Of a DNA stretch of 5,871 bases, positions 1 to 5,871 are shown piece after piece. Source of the stretch: a virus. Its lineage: Duplodnaviria; Heunggongvirae; Uroviricota; Caudoviricetes. The notes below the pieces were generated by a model. The model was not told the DNA's origin, ran no database searches, and saw nothing but the letters and a program-made list of their open reading frames with translations. Numbering within the stretch: the stretch's first letter is position 1; each line of letters opens with the position of its first letter. The translations under genes and the position numbers were made by a program. The DNA is taken from the IMG/VR virus record IMGVR_UViG_2534682252_000030; one strand, given 5' to 3'.

Positions 1-461
1 GATCATCGCTTCAGTTCCTGTATCAGCAGAGTCAGGAGCTTTTCGCTGACATTGCCATTGAAGCGGAGCGTCCCGTGCCGGAACGTTACCTCACAGCTGA
101 TACTGAGGGTTTCCGGGTCCTCTGCGAGCGATTCTGGCTGTTCGGCAGCTGCGTCGAGAGTCACAGGAAGTAGCTGGGGGCTCTCTGAAGAAGGTAATAG
201 CAGCTTTCCCTCGCGCCATTGTTGTCGCCATTTGAACAACAGATTGGCGTTAATGCCATTTTCAAGAGCAAGTTTTGAGATGGATATCCCGGGTTCACAG
301 GAGGCAGCAACGAGCTGCTGTTTAAATTCGGGAGGATAATTAGGGCAGCCTTTTCGCCTGCCGGGAGTCACATTTTTCTGCATATCTGATACTTTGGTTC
401 CCACTACTTATTTGGTGGACACCACTTTGTCTAATTCGTCAGATTCTGACCAGACGGTTCA
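1..461 (-). mobile_element. Inner end of an IS66-family-like insertion sequence; element continues past window start, exact terminus not resolvable (between 384 and 461)
   Basis: tnpA-like ORF at 3-383 replaces the expected large-terminase gene directly after a truncated Nu1-like ORF. The minus-strand sequence at the junction begins TGAACCG, and its TGA is the stop codon of the truncated ORF. No canonical IS66 GTAAGCG-type end was seen and the other end is outside the window. Confidence 0.4.
3..383 (-). CDS. IS66-family TnpA-like (orf1) accessory transposase protein; ATG at 383 preferred over the GTG at 404 used by the ORF track
   Basis: Translation MQKNVTPGRRKGCPNYPPEFKQQLVAASCEPGISISKLALENGINANLLFKWRQQW has the HTH pattern of IS orfA proteins. 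The C-terminus CEVTFRHGTLRFNGNVSEKLLTLLIQELKR resembles the conserved C-terminal block of IS66 TnpA as I recall it. No obvious Shine-Dalgarno sequence. Confidence 0.55.
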   Translation of the reverse strand: MQKNVTPGRRKGCPNYPPEFKQQLVAASCEPGISISKLALENGINANLLFKWRQQWREGKLLLPSSESPQLLPVTLDAAAEQPESLAEDPETLSISCEVTFRHGTLRFNGNVSEKLLTLLIQELKR

Positions 462-734
462 GGCTGTACGCTTTTTTAACTGCTGTGTAACAGCCTGTTC
501 TGCTGTCAGTTCCCATCTGGCAATAAGCAATTTCTCCTCATAGTCGTCTTCGCTATCGCCATCAGGCACATCGTTTTTACTTCTCCTCAGATACGATATG
601 TAAAAATCGCGCCAGGCATCCAGATCCAGTTGCCCTCGCTTATTCGATATCGGGGCACCCGGCAATTTCTGCAATCTGCGAAGCTGGCGATCGGTCAGAC
701 TTAAATGCCTGGCAACTTCAGTCTGCGTAGCCAC
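459..734 (-). CDS. Terminase small subunit, Nu1-like, N-terminal ~91 codons only (truncated; likely pseudogene)
   Basis: Starts about 195 bp from cosN, as lambda nu1 does. Has an N-terminal HTH-like segment (VARHLSLTDRQLRRLQ) and a C-terminal stretch ELTAEQAVTQQLKK resembling lambda Nu1 RLTRAQADAQELKN near residue 90-100. GTG start preceded by GAGGTGAGGA. Lambda Nu1 is 181 aa; this ORF stops at the IS junction. Confidence 0.55.
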   Translation of the reverse strand: MATQTEVARHLSLTDRQLRRLQKLPGAPISNKRGQLDLDAWRDFYISYLRRSKNDVPDGDSEDDYEEKLLIARWELTAEQAVTQQLKKRTA

Positions 735-774
735 TCCTCACCTCGCAAAAACTCTCACCTCACAATCACAACAA

Positions 775-880
775 AACCGGTCATGTCCGGTTTACATGTC
801 TGTTTTTTGTTCATGTCCGGTTCACAGAAGACCTGTTTTTATATTTTTCATATAGTTAACTTGAAGAGAAACCGGACATG
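775..880. repeat. cosB-like terminase-binding repeat set: 11-mer AACCGGACATG or its complement at 782-792, 812-822 and inverted at 870-880, plus a 1-mismatch copy at 775-785; AT-rich spacer 823-868 is a possible IHF/bending site
   Basis: Three exact copies of CATGTCCGGTT / AACCGGACATG lie between cosN and the Nu1-like start, two in one orientation and one inverted, with an AT-rich segment between. This mirrors the R3-I1-R2-R1 layout of lambda cosB but with a different sequence. Confidence 0.5.
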
Positions 881-917
881 GATCCCGGAAAATTTTCATA
901 AATAGCGAAAACCCGCG

Positions 918-929
918 AGGTCGCCGCCC
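918..929 (-). other. cosN: 12-nt cohesive-end sequence GGGCGGCGACCT (minus strand), lambda-type
   Basis: Minus strand 929 to 885 reads GGGCGGCGACCTCGCGGGTTTTCGCTATTTATGAAAATTTTCCGG, matching the lambda left end as I remember it. The other side (930-975) matches the lambda right end ...TGATAATAATTATCATTT.GCGGGTCCTTTCCGGCGATCCGACAGGTTACG. Confidence 0.85.
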
Positions 930-980
930 CGTAACCTGTCGGATCGCCGGAAAGGACCCGCAAAATGATAATAATTATCA
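930..980 (-). other. cosQ-side segment (lambda right-end-like sequence adjoining cosN)
   Basis: Reverse complement of 930-975 matches the lambda right-terminal sequence from memory. Confidence 0.6.
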
Positions 981-1128
981 TCTACATGTCACAACGTGCA
1001 TCTACGCCATCAAACCACGTCAAATAATTAATTATGACGCAGGTATCGTATTAATTGATCTGCATCAACTTAACGTAAAAACAACTTCAGACAATACAAA
1101 TCAGCGACACTGAATACGGGGCAACCTC

Positions 1129-1353
1129 ATGTCAACGAAGAACAGAACCCGCAGAACAACAACCCGCAACATCCGCTTTCCTAACCAAATGATTGAACAA
1201 ATTAACATCGCTCTTGATCAGAAAGGTTCAGGTAATTTTTCAGCGTGGGTTATTGAAGCCTGCAGAAGAAGATTAATTAATGAAAAACATGCTCAATTTG
1301 TACCCAACAAAGACAAACACGACCAGAGCACCTGTTCAGACAGGTTTACTTAA
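1129..1353 (+). CDS. Small ribbon-helix-helix-like DNA-binding protein, YlcI/YnfO (DUF3950)-like prophage protein, 74 aa
   Basis: Complete ORF with ATG. RNIRFPNQMIEQINIALDQ...NFSAWVIEACRRRL fits a beta-strand/helix/helix Arc-MetJ pattern. The N-terminus MSTKNRTRRTTTRNIRFPNQMIEQINIAL matches my recollection of the K-12 DLP12/Qin YlcI/YnfO proteins. Followed by an intrinsic terminator. Confidence 0.55.
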   Translation: MSTKNRTRRTTTRNIRFPNQMIEQINIALDQKGSGNFSAWVIEACRRRLINEKHAQFVPNKDKHDQSTCSDRFT

Positions 1354-1372
1354 ACGACTTATATATGACACA

Positions 1373-1397
1373 AAAAGCGACCACTAAAGTCGCTTTT
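1373..1397. terminator. Bidirectional rho-independent terminator between convergent genes
   Basis: Stem AAAAGCGAC (1373-1381), loop CACTAAA, stem GTCGCTTTT (1389-1397). A-run on one side and T-run on the other. Lies between the stop at 1353 (+) and the stop at 1435 (-). Confidence 0.7.
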
Positions 1398-1434
1398 TCT
1401 TATGGTAACAGGCAATAACGCTCACAGATATTTT

Positions 1435-1749
1435 TTAGCATTTTTTTGTACCGCGCGTTTCCGGACGTATTCTGTTCTCCTGTCCCTTTATATCGTCGGA
1501 ATACCCGCCGCTCTTCAAATCCCATTCCCAACTCAGAATGTAGTCTGTTGACCGCTTGTTTATTTCTGTCAGGTTCATCGGTGAAACCGGAGTCCGGCGC
1601 GCCTTACGCAAACACTCTGCTCGTTTCTGTGCCGCCACTTTTCTTTTCTGGTCATCACTTAGCTGTACCATCACTTTTGCCCATCGTTCAGCTGCTCTCC
1701 GGTACAGTCCTTTTTTCTCCAGACATTCTGCCAGGTGATCATGTAGCAT
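1435..1749 (-). CDS. PerC-family-like transcriptional activator (Pch-like), 104 aa; assignment by motif memory
   Basis: ATG at 1749 with GGAGG 7 nt upstream. N-terminal motif AECLEKKGLYRRAAERW resembles the conserved PerC-family block. Lysine/arginine-rich. Sits in the moron position between Rz and cos, behind a 460-bp AT-rich region. Confidence 0.45.
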   Translation of the reverse strand: MLHDHLAECLEKKGLYRRAAERWAKVMVQLSDDQKRKVAAQKRAECLRKARRTPVSPMNLTEINKRSTDYILSWEWDLKSGGYSDDIKGQENRIRPETRGTKKC

Positions 1750-2213
1750 AAGTGACCTCCGATTATCTACAGACTGCTATCCTGAATTTACCTTCCTTTA
1801 ATGAAATAACAATAAAAAATAAATCACAGAAAAACAACAAAACAACACACAAAAAAACCAAATAATAAACCCAAATAATCACCTTATTTTATTATTTTTT
1901 GAGAGAGCTATTACTGAACAAAAAACGCTGACTATATACTCAAAACCAAACAACTATTCTGCCAATCAGGTATAATGGCAACACAAGGAATTACCGTGTT
2001 TTTGCCTTCTCTGCCCATACAATACGGACATATACTTCATACTCTATTGTAATATTTCCATCCATGCGAACAACTTCATTTATCTGTAAATAATATTCAA
2101 AATATTTATCACAGAAATCGTTTTTGGCCATGAACTGAGCACACTATAAAGTCCGGAACTGACTCTTTGTTAAATTACCTTAACGTTACCAGTAACACCT
2201 TCATAACAAAACA

Positions 2214-2681
2214 TCACGGTATACACTGGGTACGGATATATTCCTGTGCTCCTTCCAGTTGCTTCTGCATTGCCATCAGCCGTTCTCTGAGGATGAAATA
2301 ATCCCGTTCAGCGGCTTCTGCCAGTCGGGGACCGGTTGCATTATCCACGCCGGAGGTGATGGGGGCTTTACGCAAGGAGCCTGGACAGTTGGCGTTGATG
2401 CGCAGGCGCTTACGACCAGCGGCAACATCAGCACGCAGAGTTTCATTTTCAGCTCTCGCATCGGCTAATTCCCTCGAGTATCTGGCATCAAGTGCAGCGA
2501 CATCACGCTGGCGTACCTGCATATCAGTAATTGTCACGTTCGCCAGCTTCAGCTCACTGGCTTTTTTATCGCGTTGCGCTTTGTAGGTAATGGCGTTATC
2601 GCGGTAATGATTCAGCCCCAGACTAAGCACACCACAGGCTACCAGCAGGACAATAATCACCACACACAGAACACGGTTCAT
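2214..2681 (-). CDS. Rz: Rz i-spanin (inner-membrane spanin subunit), 155 aa
   Basis: MNRVL...[45 protein letters not shown]...[20 protein letters not shown] aligns along its length with lambda Rz. N-terminal TM segment present. Confidence 0.9.
2276..2461 (-). CDS. Rz1: Rz1 o-spanin lipoprotein, embedded in the +1 frame of Rz
   Basis: [20 protein letters not shown]...[32 protein letters not shown] matches lambda Rz1, including the lipobox (VVSAC) and proline-rich core. True start may be the internal Met at about 2446. Confidence 0.85.
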
Positions 2682-2688
2682 ATCCCCC

Positions 2689-2820
2689 TCACCCCACCAG
2701 CCATGACAAAGTTAAGACGCGCCAGGCAGTGGAAAAGCAAATAGCAACCAGCATTAGTGAAAATGAAATGCCGACGATTACACAGAGGATCTTCGCCAGC
2801 GTTATGAGCTTGTCTGACAT
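2689..2820 (-). CDS. Small hydrophobic membrane protein, 43 aa, unknown function
   Basis: ATG at 2820 preceded by AGAGGA. Translation [43 protein letters not shown] is almost entirely a TM helix. Its TGA stop overlaps the Shine-Dalgarno of Rz. It is in the same frame as the upstream 60-aa ORF, separated only by TGA plus 12 nt. Confidence 0.45.
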
Positions 2821-2832
2821 GCTTAATCCTCT

Positions 2833-3015
2833 TCACGATTTCAACGCAATGACCAGTTTTGCCAGCCCATACAGCATCGGAGACACAGCAATACCGACCG
2901 CCACCCACTTAATAGCAAAAGCCAGCGCTCTGCTGACGTCATCAGTTACAGGCGCTTTCAGTTCAAGGCCGTTTTTCATAGTCAATCTCAACAGAATTCG
3001 TTTATACTTTCCCAT
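2833..3015 (-). CDS. Small tail-anchored membrane protein, 60 aa, unknown function
   Basis: ATG at 3015 with AGGGAG 5 nt upstream. MGKYKRILLRLTMKNGLELKAPVTDDVSRALAFAIKWVAVGIAVSPMLYGLAKLVIALKS has a basic N-terminus and a C-terminal TM helix. The 86-aa form in the ORF track starts at a GTG inside a terminator hairpin and is less likely. Confidence 0.45.
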   Translation of the reverse strand: MGKYKRILLRLTMKNGLELKAPVTDDVSRALAFAIKWVAVGIAVSPMLYGLAKLVIALKS

Positions 3016-3049
3016 GTTCTCCCTTGCCTTACTCAAGGTCAGAAACACA

Positions 3050-3080
3050 AAACCCCGTTTGCGGCCAACAAACGGGGTTT
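3050..3080. terminator. Intrinsic terminator hairpin between the endolysin gene and the small membrane-protein ORFs (bidirectional in form)
   Basis: Perfect 12-bp stem AAACCCCGTTTG (3050-3061) / CAAACGGGGTTT (3069-3080) with loop CGGCCAA. T-rich tract follows on both strands. Confidence 0.7.
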
Positions 3081-3170
3081 TACTTTTATTCACTTAGTTT
3101 TTGCCAGTTCGCAGGATTTCGTGTTATCCGCCAGTGTGAGCAAACCGCATTTTTCAGCAAAATATTCTGC

Positions 3171-3704
3171 TTATCTGTCAATTCCCCAGCACGCCAGCGC
3201 GCTCTCCTGGTCACGCCGTGAAACCTGACCGTAGCAGTTGTTTGAGCGAATACGGCAGTCTCTGCCACCGTCCTTAATCCACCAGCGAATCGCCTCACAC
3301 GCTCCCCTGCGATCACCTGCATTAATTCGTCTGTAAAACGTCGACGGGAAACACTTACCGGGACCAATGTTGTACGGACAGAATGACGCGATCCCCGCTT
3401 TCTGGGGTTCGGTCAGCGGTACTTTAATATTGCGCTCCACCCACTCCAGCGCCTTATCACGTTCAATGGCGTTAACCTGGTCGCATTTTTCCTTCGACAA
3501 CTTCATGCCCGGAACGACAGGTTTACCATCCACCAGGATGGCACCGCGGCAGATGGTCCAGATACCCGCACCATCACGGTATGCCGTGGTGTGGTTACCT
3601 TCTTTTTCGTCAAGAAACTGGTCGAGGATTTCAGGCGCAGACGCCCCTGCACCAATCAGCGCCAGAACGGCAGCCGACAGGCCGTATCTGATTTTTGCGT
3701 TCAT
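3171..3704 (-). CDS. R: Phage lysozyme (GH24, T4-lysozyme-like) with N-terminal signal-anchor-release-type segment; RrrQ-like, 177 aa
   Basis: Intact ORF. N-terminal weakly hydrophobic Gly/Ala-rich segment YGLSAAVLALIGAGASA. Catalytic E-x8-D-x5-T motif in EGNHTTAYRDGAGIWT. Close to my recollection of the K-12 Qin prophage lysozyme. Confidence 0.85.
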   Translation of the reverse strand: MNAKIRYGLSAAVLALIGAGASAPEILDQFLDEKEGNHTTAYRDGAGIWTICRGAILVDGKPVVPGMKLSKEKCDQVNAIERDKALEWVERNIKVPLTEPQKAGIASFCPYNIGPGKCFPSTFYRRINAGDRRGACEAIRWWIKDGGRDCRIRSNNCYGQVSRRDQESALACWGIDR

Positions 3705-3754
3705 GGATATTTATCAGGGTTTATCGATTTCAAATCCCTGGATATGTTAAGTCT

Positions 3755-4098
3755 TCAGGCCAGCGGTGGAGTCTTCAGAGAACCCGTAATTATTCCCGGT
3801 AGTTTTCCTCTGTAGGTTATCAACACATCCTGCGCCTCTAAAATTACGGGACGCTTTTCCGGTAACGGACCATCCCCTTCACATAACCCGGCAGCAACAT
3901 CCATGAAAAACTGCTTCGCCTGCTTTTTCGCCTCAGCTTCGTAAAACTCCAGCGTGGCACCTTCAGTACGGTCAAGACTAATCGCCACATCTGGCAACAA
4001 CAGTGACGGATACCCACCAATTTCCGGTGCCACAGTAACAGTAATCTTATCCGGGTAATTATTTATCCCTTTAACACCCAGTTCGTATTTTTCTTCAT
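3755..4098 (-). pseudogene. YdfR-like (DUF1327-like) small protein gene between holin and endolysin, disrupted by an apparent 1-nt deletion in an A5 run
   Basis: ATG at 4098 with GGGGGGAG 7 nt upstream opens MKKNTNWVLKG then stops. One extra A in the A-run (4088-4092) would join it to the long open frame MKKKYELGVKGINNYPDKITVTVAPEIGGYPSLLLPD...TPPLA ending at 3755. The track ORF 3755-4033 is the GTG-initiated tail of that frame. Family name is from memory of Qin gene order (essQ-ydfR-rrrQ). Confidence 0.45.
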
Positions 4099-4102
4099 CG
4101 CT

Positions 4103-4306
4103 TTACTCCCCCCGCGCCGCCTTACGACGGTCCTCTCTGATTTTGAAATACAGGTTAGTCAGATACGTCAGCAGGCCAAACAGCAGACTCCCAGCACACC
4201 GATTGCCACCCACTGGACGGAGAGACTTTGTCCAGCAGCTGCAGTAACCAGTATCCCGTCCCACCGCTGACGTGGTGTATGACACACCTGTTGTGATTTT
4301 TTCCAT
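4103..4306 (-). pseudogene. S: Class II pinholin (S21 / EssD-like) gene carrying three apparent single-nucleotide deletions
   Basis: The annotated frame gives [16 protein letters not shown]...[28 protein letters not shown], with a holin-like N- and C-terminus but a scrambled middle. The holin-like middle appears in the other two frames: [14 protein letters not shown], then QWVAIGVLG. Frame switches fall near 4260-4267, 4215-4218 and 4190-4192, each in a G or C run. Confidence 0.7.
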
Positions 4307-4351
4307 CTGATGTATGTCTCCGTCACCGCCGACAGAAAATGAAAGTAAAGG

Positions 4352-4386
4352 AAAACAAAAAGCCGCCAGTGTCGCCCACTGACGGC
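4352..4386 (-). terminator. tR'-like intrinsic terminator upstream of the holin gene (site expected for Q-dependent antitermination)
   Basis: On the minus strand: 10-bp stem GCCGTCAGTG / CACTGGCGGC (one G-U pair), loop GGCGA, then TTTTTGTTTTCC. Lies 46 bp upstream of the holin ATG. Confidence 0.6.
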
Positions 4387-4464
4387 CAACGCCGGGAGCC
4401 GTGATTATGGCATTCAGGCTCTGCTAAAAATGCCAGATAACATTCCGGCTCCCCCCCCTGATTC

Positions 4465-4493
4465 AGGTTATAAATGACACAATATCTTGACAA
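4465..4493 (-). promoter_or_regulatory. Candidate late promoter (pR'-like): -35 TTGTCA, 17-bp spacer, -10 TAACCT on the minus strand
   Basis: Position is right relative to the tR'-like terminator and holin gene, and the -10 hexamer fits TAnnnT. The motif match is weak and no Q-binding site can be defined by eye. Confidence 0.25.
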
Positions 4494-4568
4494 CACCCAT
4501 CACTGTCTGTCAGAAAATGTACTGCCAGATATAAGTATCATGTGAAACCCAACTATCCTTCTTAGCCA

Positions 4569-4571
4569 GTA
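4569..4571. repeat. Target-site duplication GTA (left copy) of the IS3-family element
   Basis: GTA directly flanks both ends of the element (4569-4571 and 5645-5647). IS3-family elements make 3-bp duplications. Confidence 0.7.
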
Positions 4572-4596
4572 TGAACCGCCCCGGAAATCCTGGAGA
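4572..4596 (+). repeat. IS left inverted repeat (IRL)
   Basis: TGAACCGCCCCGGAAATCCTGGAGA; matches the reverse complement of the right end at 22/25 positions. Confidence 0.8.
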
Positions 4597-4625
4597 CTAA
4601 ACTCCCTGAGAAAGAGGTAAACAGG

Positions 4626-4952
4626 ATGACTAAAAATACTCGTTTTTCCCCCGAAGTCCGTCAGCGGGCGATTCGTATGGTTCTGGAAAGTCAGGATGAA
4701 TATGACTCACAGTGGGCGGCAATTTGTTCCATTGCCCCAAAGATTGGCTGTACGCCGGAGACTCTGCGTGTCTGGGTTCGCCAGCATGAGCGGGATACCG
4801 GGGGCGGTGATGGTGGGCTCACCAGCGCTGAACGTCAGCGTCTGAAAGAGCTGGAACGTGAAAATCGTGAACTGCGCCGCAGTAACGATATCCTTCGCCA
4901 GGCTTCCGCTTATTTTGCGAAGGCGGAGTTCGACCGCCTCTGGAAAAAATGA
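4626..4952 (+). CDS. IS3-family transposase OrfA (HTH / leucine-zipper DNA-binding component), 108 aa
   Basis: [22 protein letters not shown]...[34 protein letters not shown] is a typical IS629-group OrfA. SD-like GAGG upstream. Confidence 0.85.
4943..4949 (+). other. Candidate -1 programmed frameshift site (A-run) at the orfA/orfB overlap
   Basis: A6 run 4944-4949 directly before the orfA stop TGA (4950-4952), with orfB in the -1 frame starting ATGATG at 4949. IS3-family transposases are normally made as an OrfAB fusion by -1 frameshifting on an A-rich heptamer. Confidence 0.5.
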
Positions 4953-5602
4953 TGCCACTGCTGGATAAGCTGCGTGAGCAGTACGGGGTCGGACCGGTAT
5001 GCAGCGAACTGCATATTGCCCCGTCAACGTATTACCATTGTCAGCAACAGCGACATCATCCGGATAAACGCAGTGCCCGTGCGCAGCACGACGACTGGCT
5101 GAAGAGAGAGATACAGCGCGTATACGATGAAAATCATCAGGTGTACGGTGTGCGTAAAGTCTGGCGTCAGTTGTTACGGGAAGGAATCAGGGTGGCCAGA
5201 TGTACAGTGGCACGTCTCATGGCGGTTATGGGACTTGCCGGTGTTCTCCGGGGTAAATGGGCCCGTCGTCCGTCTGGCACCATCCATCACAGCGATAAAG
5301 GCTCTCAGTATGTGTCACTGGCCTATACGGAGCGACTAAAAGAAGCCGGATTACTGGCATCAACAGGGAGTACAGGCGACTCGTATGACAACGCGATGGC
5401 TGAGAGCATCAATGGTCTTTACAAAGCGGAGGTAATACACCGTAAGAGCTGGAAAAACCGTGCAGAAGTGGAACTGGCCACACTAACGTGGGTGGACTGG
5501 TATAACAATCGACGATTGCTGGGAAGGCTGGGCCATACTCCTCCGGCAGAAGCAGAAAAAGCTTATTATGCTTCCATCGGAAACGATGATCTGGCAGCCT
5601 GA
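4949..5602 (+). CDS. IS3-family transposase OrfB (DDE catalytic component) with an in-frame internal deletion of about 75-80 codons; probably catalytically dead
   Basis: 217 aa versus roughly 290 aa for IS3-family OrfB. Only about 11 residues separate GVLRGK from HHSDKGSQY (second catalytic Asp), where full-length proteins carry about 80 residues including the first Asp (D.TY motif). Downstream [15 protein letters not shown] block is intact. Junction near 5255-5260. Confidence 0.75.
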
Positions 5603-5619
5603 GTTCACAGATAAAACAC

Positions 5620-5644
5620 TCTCCAGGAAACCCGGGGCGGTTCA
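5620..5644 (-). repeat. IS right inverted repeat (IRR)
   Basis: Reverse complement reads TGAACCGCCCCGGGTTTCCTGGAGA. Confidence 0.8.
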
Positions 5645-5647
5645 GTA
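5645..5647. repeat. Target-site duplication GTA (right copy)
   Basis: Identical to 4569-4571, immediately abutting the IS end. Confidence 0.7.
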
Positions 5648-5682
5648 CTTCTCCGACGAAAGTCAGTACTGGCTGTTTTTTT
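5648..5682 (+). terminator. Intrinsic terminator hairpin split by the IS insertion (left stem arm is at 4564-4571 plus 5648-5649)
   Basis: With the IS and one GTA copy removed the site reads AGCCAGTACT tctccgacgaaagtc AGTACTGGCT GTTTTTTT: a perfect 10-bp stem and a T7 tract on the plus strand. Confidence 0.45.
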
Positions 5683-5683
5683 A

Positions 5684-5871
5684 TTATGCTGCCGGTGCAT
5701 TTATCTCCAGCATCAGACTTTCTATCTCAACGCCATACGCTGCATTTTTTGTAACATCCGTCAGCGTCAGCGCATTCAGTCCCAGTGTCAGACTGTCTTT
5801 TATAACCTGGAATGCCGGGCCAGCCACTCCATTCAGTTTCGGAGTAACCATGGCACTGCCGGCGGTGAACA
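5684..5871 (-). CDS. 3' end of a gene running off the right edge (61 C-terminal codons), product unknown; sits where lambdoid phages carry the late-gene activator
   Basis: Open minus-strand frame from the window edge to TAA at 5684-5686: ...AMVTPKLNGVAGPAFQVIKDSLTLGLNALTLTDVTKNAAYGVEIESLMLEINAPAA. Not in the ORF track because it has no start in the window. I do not recognise a family. Confidence 0.35.
   Translation of the reverse strand, partial: FTAGSAMVTPKLNGVAGPAFQVIKDSLTLGLNALTLTDVTKNAAYGVEIESLMLEINAPAA

Follow-up and report, generated by a model that had tools for sequence, protein, structure and literature searches.

Four single bases are missing from the holin and ydfR genes of the 5,871-nt stretch of DNA analysed here (the whole of which is referred to as the window), and our comparisons with related sequences indicate that they are very probably errors of the sequence record, in which an assembly that is accurate elsewhere would be interrupted by two short patches of poor consensus, rather than mutations of the bacterium. 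The lesions are present in the window and confined to this record, they fall in two patches, and their reversal gives the intact genes exactly. The holin, ydfR and perC genes are most likely intact in the real DNA, and the underlying locus is an ordinary late region of an O157:H7 prophage of the Sp14 type.

Sequence comparison and Pfam matches identify the window as the late region of a lambdoid prophage of E. coli O157:H7, of the type known as Sp14 in strain Sakai. Positions 472–5871 are collinear with the Sp14 locus at 99.8% identity, a relation that holds across hundreds of complete O157:H7 genomes, among them those of Sakai and of EDL933 as resequenced. Gene order and the site of IS629 agree with Sp14 of Sakai and with the equivalent prophages of EDL933 and further O157:H7 strains. 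The window differs from these loci in that its IS629 allele has a 237-bp deletion, that ISEc8 forms a junction within the terminase gene, and that seven differences are window-specific. The features of the window that surround the holin and ydfR genes are as follows.

1–471, minus strand: end of an IS66-family element (ISEc8 tnpA), by which the terminase small-subunit gene is truncated.
1435–1749, minus strand: perC (PF06069).
2214–2681, minus strand: Rz spanin gene, intact, with an embedded Rz1 gene at 2276–2461.
3171–3704, minus strand: phage lysozyme (endolysin) gene, 177 aa, PF00959, intact and identical to the O157:H7 reference allele.
4572–5644, plus strand: IS629/IS1203 copy between nanS-p and the holin gene, with a GTA target duplication at its flanks.
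5662–5871, minus strand: 3' end of the nanS-p esterase gene.

The truncation of the terminase small-subunit gene by ISEc8 marks the prophage as defective. This junction is common to four complete genomes, and strain 2571 (L023) has the whole architecture of the window in common, the ISEc8 junction included. The IS629/IS1203 copy is error-free, and its orfB gene carries a 237-bp in-frame deletion (217 aa). Copies of the deleted IS629 that are 100% identical occur at other loci of O157:H7 genomes of the EDL933 type, beside nanS-p and inside abgT (L012–L018, L020), and the site of the element in the window is occupied by a full-length IS in other strains. The deleted IS629 could be a non-autonomous derivative that spreads either through gene conversion or by being transposed in trans; alternatively, it could be the product of an assembly swap. 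A related prophage in EDL933 (L012, CP008957.1, positions 1263838–1276491) shares with window positions 1–5644 both the ISEc8/terminase junction and the deleted form of IS629. The lysis cassette of that prophage is a 90–96% identical allele that lies in opposite orientation to the DNA on either side of it; one breakpoint falls within ylcI/ynfO (window about 1164–1272), and the arrangement looks like an IS-associated inversion.

We aligned the window base by base to the intact O157:H7 locus of NZ_CP133128.1 (L001) and to strain 2571. In the holin–ydfR region (patch A, 4088–4262) the window has exactly four 1-nt gaps with a span of 175 bp, and the same four appear against both loci. An earlier reading of the window, made from its sequence only, had counted four 1-nt deletions in about 180 bp, in agreement with the alignment. 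It had placed all four in homopolymer runs, which is correct in that the runs exist and are short, but the G3 to G2 change is barely a homopolymer event. The two genes and the four lesions are listed below, the holin deletions in reading direction.

4103–4306, minus strand: ORF of an S21-type class II holin (pinholin), 67 aa versus 68 aa in the intact gene.
4260–4262, minus strand: C4 to C3 (G3 on the gene strand), first holin deletion, after codon 16.
4215–4216, minus strand: G3 to G2 (C2 on the gene strand), second holin deletion.
4190–4192, minus strand: C4 to C3 (G3 on the gene strand), third holin deletion, after which the frame is back to normal.
3755–4098, minus strand: ydfR (DUF1327), split into an 11-codon ORF (4098–4063) and a 92-aa remnant (4033–3755).
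4088–4092, minus strand: T6 to T5 (A6 to A5 on the gene strand), in codons 3–4 of ydfR; the intact alleles all have A6.

The holin ORF stays open because the three −1 deletions sum to −3, and between them residues 17–39 are scrambled, with 23 residues in place of 24 intact ones. In the alignment, these residues take the place of the hydrophobic segment TGYWLLQLL...WVAIGVLG. The match to PF04971 amounts to 52.8 bits over residues 39–63 in the holin ORF of the window, compared to 112.5 bits over residues 2–64 in the repaired or intact protein, a full-length match that exceeds the gathering score of the family. We computed that 75% of random triple −1 deletions would leave the holin ORF open; its staying open is therefore no evidence of selection.

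On the minus strand, ydfR has a GGAG Shine–Dalgarno motif and an ATG at 4098, and is read for 11 codons (MKKNTNWVLKG) before it meets a stop, just as the sequence-only reading had described in pointing to an excellent ribosome-binding site followed by early termination. That reading had also held that an extra A in the run at 4088–4092 would restore an ORF of about 115 aa. One added A in fact produces a YdfR protein of 114 aa, identical to RefSeq WP_000731204.1, which is annotated in L001 and described by RefSeq as a YdfR family protein; the repaired protein matches PF07041 with 151 bits over residues 1–112. When all four bases are put back, the result is exactly the 68-aa holin and the 114-aa YdfR.

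The holin heads the lysis cassette, which has the order holin, YdfR, lysozyme and Rz/Rz1 both in the window and in the annotated loci. As in the S21 pinholin/SAR-endolysin cassette of phage 21, the window holin lies upstream of the phage lysozyme and Rz/Rz1, and its repaired form gives an end-to-end match to PF04971 (Bacteriophage P21 holin S), whereas the holin as written in the record is without the N-terminal two-thirds of the family match. Unlike the phage 21 cassette, the window has a DUF1327/YdfR gene between the holin and the endolysin; VT2-Sakai, which served as the functional-phage comparator, has no ydfR between S and R.

Two further observations concern the surroundings of these genes. 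The run at 4451–4458 upstream of the holin gene, which is C8 in both the window and L001, is extended to C9 in strain 2571 and reads C6 in the noisy 99-3311 assembly described below; it is either genuinely variable or else error-prone. The contigs of two independent assemblies (L010 and L011) end at the same point, window position 4035, which is 2 bp upstream of the GTG at 4033, and this shared end points to a boundary of repeats between paralogous prophages, immediately ahead of the start of ydfR and of the holin patch.

Alignment to L001, strain 2571 and other loci revealed a second cluster of differences found in the window.

1424–1559, minus strand: window-specific patch (patch B), in and just beyond perC.

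At position 1424, immediately 3' of the stop codon of PerC, an A in the window stands against a T in all other loci; at 1449 the window has an extra T outside any run, and at 1559 a T4 run is shortened to T3. The −1 and +1 changes cancel and leave a 104-aa ORF open in which about 36 residues are scrambled, and the PF06069 model positions matched by PerC are 1–66 in the window versus 1–89 in the intact protein. The frame compensation restores the last four codons only, and by our computation an open outcome would be expected in 4% of cases. Because the pair compensates the frame, the lesions in PerC are overlooked by an ORF-based check. The sequence-only reading had reported no comparable shifts elsewhere in the window, and this is true of the endolysin, Rz/Rz1 and IS orfA genes, which are clean, but the compensating pair in PerC had escaped it. 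The substitutions at 1567 and 1578 are ordinary polymorphisms, common to L002 and L010.

The remainder of the window agrees closely with its relatives. There are no substitutions between 1579 and 5849 in the alignment to the intact O157:H7 locus, and positions 1601–5203, once repaired, are an exact substring of L001. Outside the two patches, each SNP and one C8/C9 run length are common to at least one comparator, the 237-bp IS deletion aside. The window contains no ambiguity codes; for comparison, 2,413 non-N ambiguity codes were reported in the 2001 record of EDL933 (AE005174/NC_002655) (PMC4132626).

The two patches measure 135 and 175 bp and are 2.5 kb apart, and their seven differences comprise five run deletions, one non-run insertion and one substitution. 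The sequence-only reading had called the local cluster unusual, and the statistics uphold it: with random placement over 5871 bp, the probability that 4 of 7 window-specific events fall within 175 bp is about 0.003, and a confinement of all seven to two patches of at most 175 bp arose in none of 200,000 simulations. Runs of no more than 4 nt account for four of the five deletions, and several longer runs are untouched, namely the C8 run at 4451–4458, two T7 runs, an A7 run, and a C6 run inside patch A (4108–4113). In replication slippage the indel rate climbs steeply with run length. If this steep dependence is taken, by assumption, as a 3–4-fold rise in rate per added base, such sparing of long runs has P = 0.014–0.0009, and the indel spectrum is improbable under replication slippage. 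GC compression was considered as a cause and rejected: the GC content is 54% in patch A, 43% in patch B and 48% overall, and there is no consistent signal across the two patches.

We then asked where else these variants occur. A 100% match to the window was lacking from all collections searched, namely the complete RefSeq genomes of E. coli, phages, plasmids, IMG/VR, the GTDB representatives and metagenomes. Among 5,426 complete E. coli genomes, the seven differences were found in no good genome, the exception being coincident undercalls in one noisy assembly. The A5 run of ydfR in the Sp14 context was found in none of 416 complete-genome records, the variant string of the holin in none of 721 records with 4004 places, and any of the three differences of the PerC patch in none of 688 records. 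The G3 to G2 change at 4215–4216 and the C4 to C3 change at 4260–4262 are in no other sequence that we searched. The exact holin strings were not found in IMG/VR, in the GTDB representative genomes or in JGI metagenomes, and the scrambled holin and PerC proteins were found neither in an index of 153 billion genes nor among about 15 billion proteins. Control segments from error-free parts of the window had matches of at least 99% in 440 and 301 complete-genome records, the latter for the lysozyme segment at 3300–3475, and the matches listed were 100% identical. To see whether errors go with the presence of identical paralogues, places were counted in one genome: there were 9 for the holin patch, 3 for the PerC patch, 1 for one control segment and 10 for the lysozyme control, a segment in which the window nonetheless has no errors; over O157:H7 genomes, the holin segment has a median of 6 paralogous copies. 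The sequence-only reading had left real decay and sequencing artefact as the two possibilities for this locus, and the same locus in close relatives, none of which shares the run lengths of the window, places the outcome on the side of artefact.

The 92-aa remnant of YdfR is on record on 24 contigs. The A6 to A5 undercall occurs also in noisy or draft assemblies (L003–L009 and the assembly of strain 99-3311), and the assemblies that carry A5 also show fragmented genes or further homopolymer indels close by. The possibility that A5 is the natural state of a second prophage type, 94% identical, was considered and rejected, as the allele of that type has A6 in complete genomes; 1 of 1271 complete-genome records reached 99% identity to its A5 version, and that record was not among the full-length matches listed. 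A separate case is the locus of UGCM01000003.1 (L002), which has A6 at the ydfR run and carries instead a C3 to C2 change (gene strand) at window positions 4051–4053; this lesion yields the same 92-aa remnant by another route.

The assembly of strain 99-3311 (L021, NZ_CP101310.1, 1954575–1960674), the single complete genome with a nearer approach to the holin string, provides a control for what sequencing errors look like at this locus. It contains 20 indels spread evenly over 3.4 kb, in short and long runs, and the holin, ydfR, lysozyme and perC genes are all annotated as frameshifted in what RefSeq lists as a complete genome. Homopolymer undercalls recur every 100–300 bp across the prophage. 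The assembly is uniformly noisy, and pseudogene calls in it are unreliable. Three of the five deletion sites of the window (T4 at 1559, T6 at 4088 and C4 at 4190) are undercalled in 99-3311 too (hypergeometric P = 0.003), and the C4 to C3 change at 4190–4192 is common to the window and this assembly only. The shared sites are thus places where sequencing does go wrong. Unlike the even spread in 99-3311, the successive indels of the window are 109, 2530, 103, 26 and 46 bp apart.

It is conceivable, if unlikely, that the lesions arose in the bacterium, as a real burst of −1 frameshifts unique to the source isolate which silenced the pinholin and ydfR, together with a second burst in perC. One route to such a burst would be a single tract of error-prone repair synthesis by Pol IV/DinB during prophage recombination or repair. 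The lesions are tightly clustered, as this would require, and three of the four are −1 events in G/C runs, which error-prone DNA polymerase IV also produces. Since the prophage was already defective, the loss of lysis genes would be tolerated and would be neutral or protective against lysis, and an event private to one strain would be missing from other genomes anyway. However, two independent bursts within 2.7 kb would be needed, and patch A contains no window-specific substitution. Patch B has a different spectrum, as it combines a transversion with a +1 insertion outside any run. The demonstrably noisy assembly of 99-3311 has undercalls at three of the five deletion sites, and the compensation in PerC, which restores only four codons, would not be favoured by selection. 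Errors in records are also far commoner than multi-hit mutation clusters. Still less likely is that all seven changes are real, the result of two closely spaced mutation showers, mainly of −1 frameshifts and each from a single tract of error-prone repair synthesis, that silenced the pinholin, ydfR and perC in the domesticated prophage of one isolate; if true, they would show that clustered multi-frameshift mutagenesis can occur naturally in a bacterial genome.

A mixed origin can also be envisaged, in which slippage at a mildly unstable run really produced the A6 to A5 change of ydfR whereas those of the holin and PerC are artefacts, or the other way round. Of the runs that were hit, A6 is the longest; A5 appears in several independent assemblies, and the 92-aa remnant is on its 24 contigs. 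But nearly all A5 assemblies have other homopolymer indels or fragmented genes nearby, A5 was absent from all 416 records in the Sp14 context, only 1 of 1271 records reached 99% identity to the A5 version of the other allele, and the A5 change lies 100 bp from three window-specific deletions, for which a single cause is simplest. We regard such a mixture as quite improbable. The probability is negligible that a divergent allele was recombined in from a paralogous prophage, or that the shifted genes are read through by programmed or transcriptional slippage. O157:H7 genomes do contain many paralogous copies of the cassette, and mosaic exchange between paralogues is common, as seen at 1567 and 1578, where the SNPs recur in L002 and L010. 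Yet no paralogous allele with these run lengths was found in any collection searched, and the flanking SNPs are all of the Sp14 type. The scrambled holin has no Pfam match over residues 1–38, and runs of 2–5 nt are too short for efficient transcriptional slippage. Both possibilities are effectively excluded.

Errors of the record, by contrast with these alternatives, account for the lesions most readily, because the variants are unique to the record, patchy, of mixed type, independent of run length and partly located at known undercall sites. We infer a technical cause from this pattern. The errors may stem from single-pass, low-quality read ends within a finished assembly of a repeat-rich region, or they may be homopolymer undercalls of long reads that were left over after polishing. 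The residual errors of long-read assemblies mostly concern homopolymer length and often survive polishing in repeats (PMC8812927), and the prophage repeats of O157:H7 are hard to assemble (PMC4132626). The window resembles residual assembly errors of this kind (PMC8812927) in its 1-nt undercalls in runs, in the confinement of these to patches in a repeat-rich prophage region with the remainder perfect, and in the undercalling of the same sites in another noisy assembly; it departs from residual homopolymer errors (PMC8812927) in the non-run insertion and the substitution of patch B, and in that the longest runs are spared.

There is also a likeness to the natural decay of cryptic prophages, as lysis genes are frameshifted in the window and IS elements had already disabled the prophage. 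Lesions of natural decay are normally found in related strains too, through common descent, and are accompanied by substitutions, by insertions of IS elements or by deletions of larger size. In contrast, the lesions of the window occur in this record only, are 25–100 bp apart and have no window-specific substitutions adjacent to them. These comparisons speak against a natural pseudogene: the lesions are not shared by descent, and the DNA within 2.5 kb of patch A is free of window-specific substitutions. The finding matches a known class of assembly error, and the underlying biology is that of a known prophage lysis cassette.

The cluster bears on every pseudogene call in the window, a point on which we agree with the sequence-only reading. 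The apparent pseudogenes of holin, ydfR and perC in this record should not be scored as prophage decay. Frame-compensating errors such as the −3 in the holin and the −1/+1 pair in PerC leave ORFs open that encode plausible but scrambled proteins, and checks based on ORFs miss them. For the biology of this O157:H7 prophage, the lysis cassette is to be treated as probably intact.
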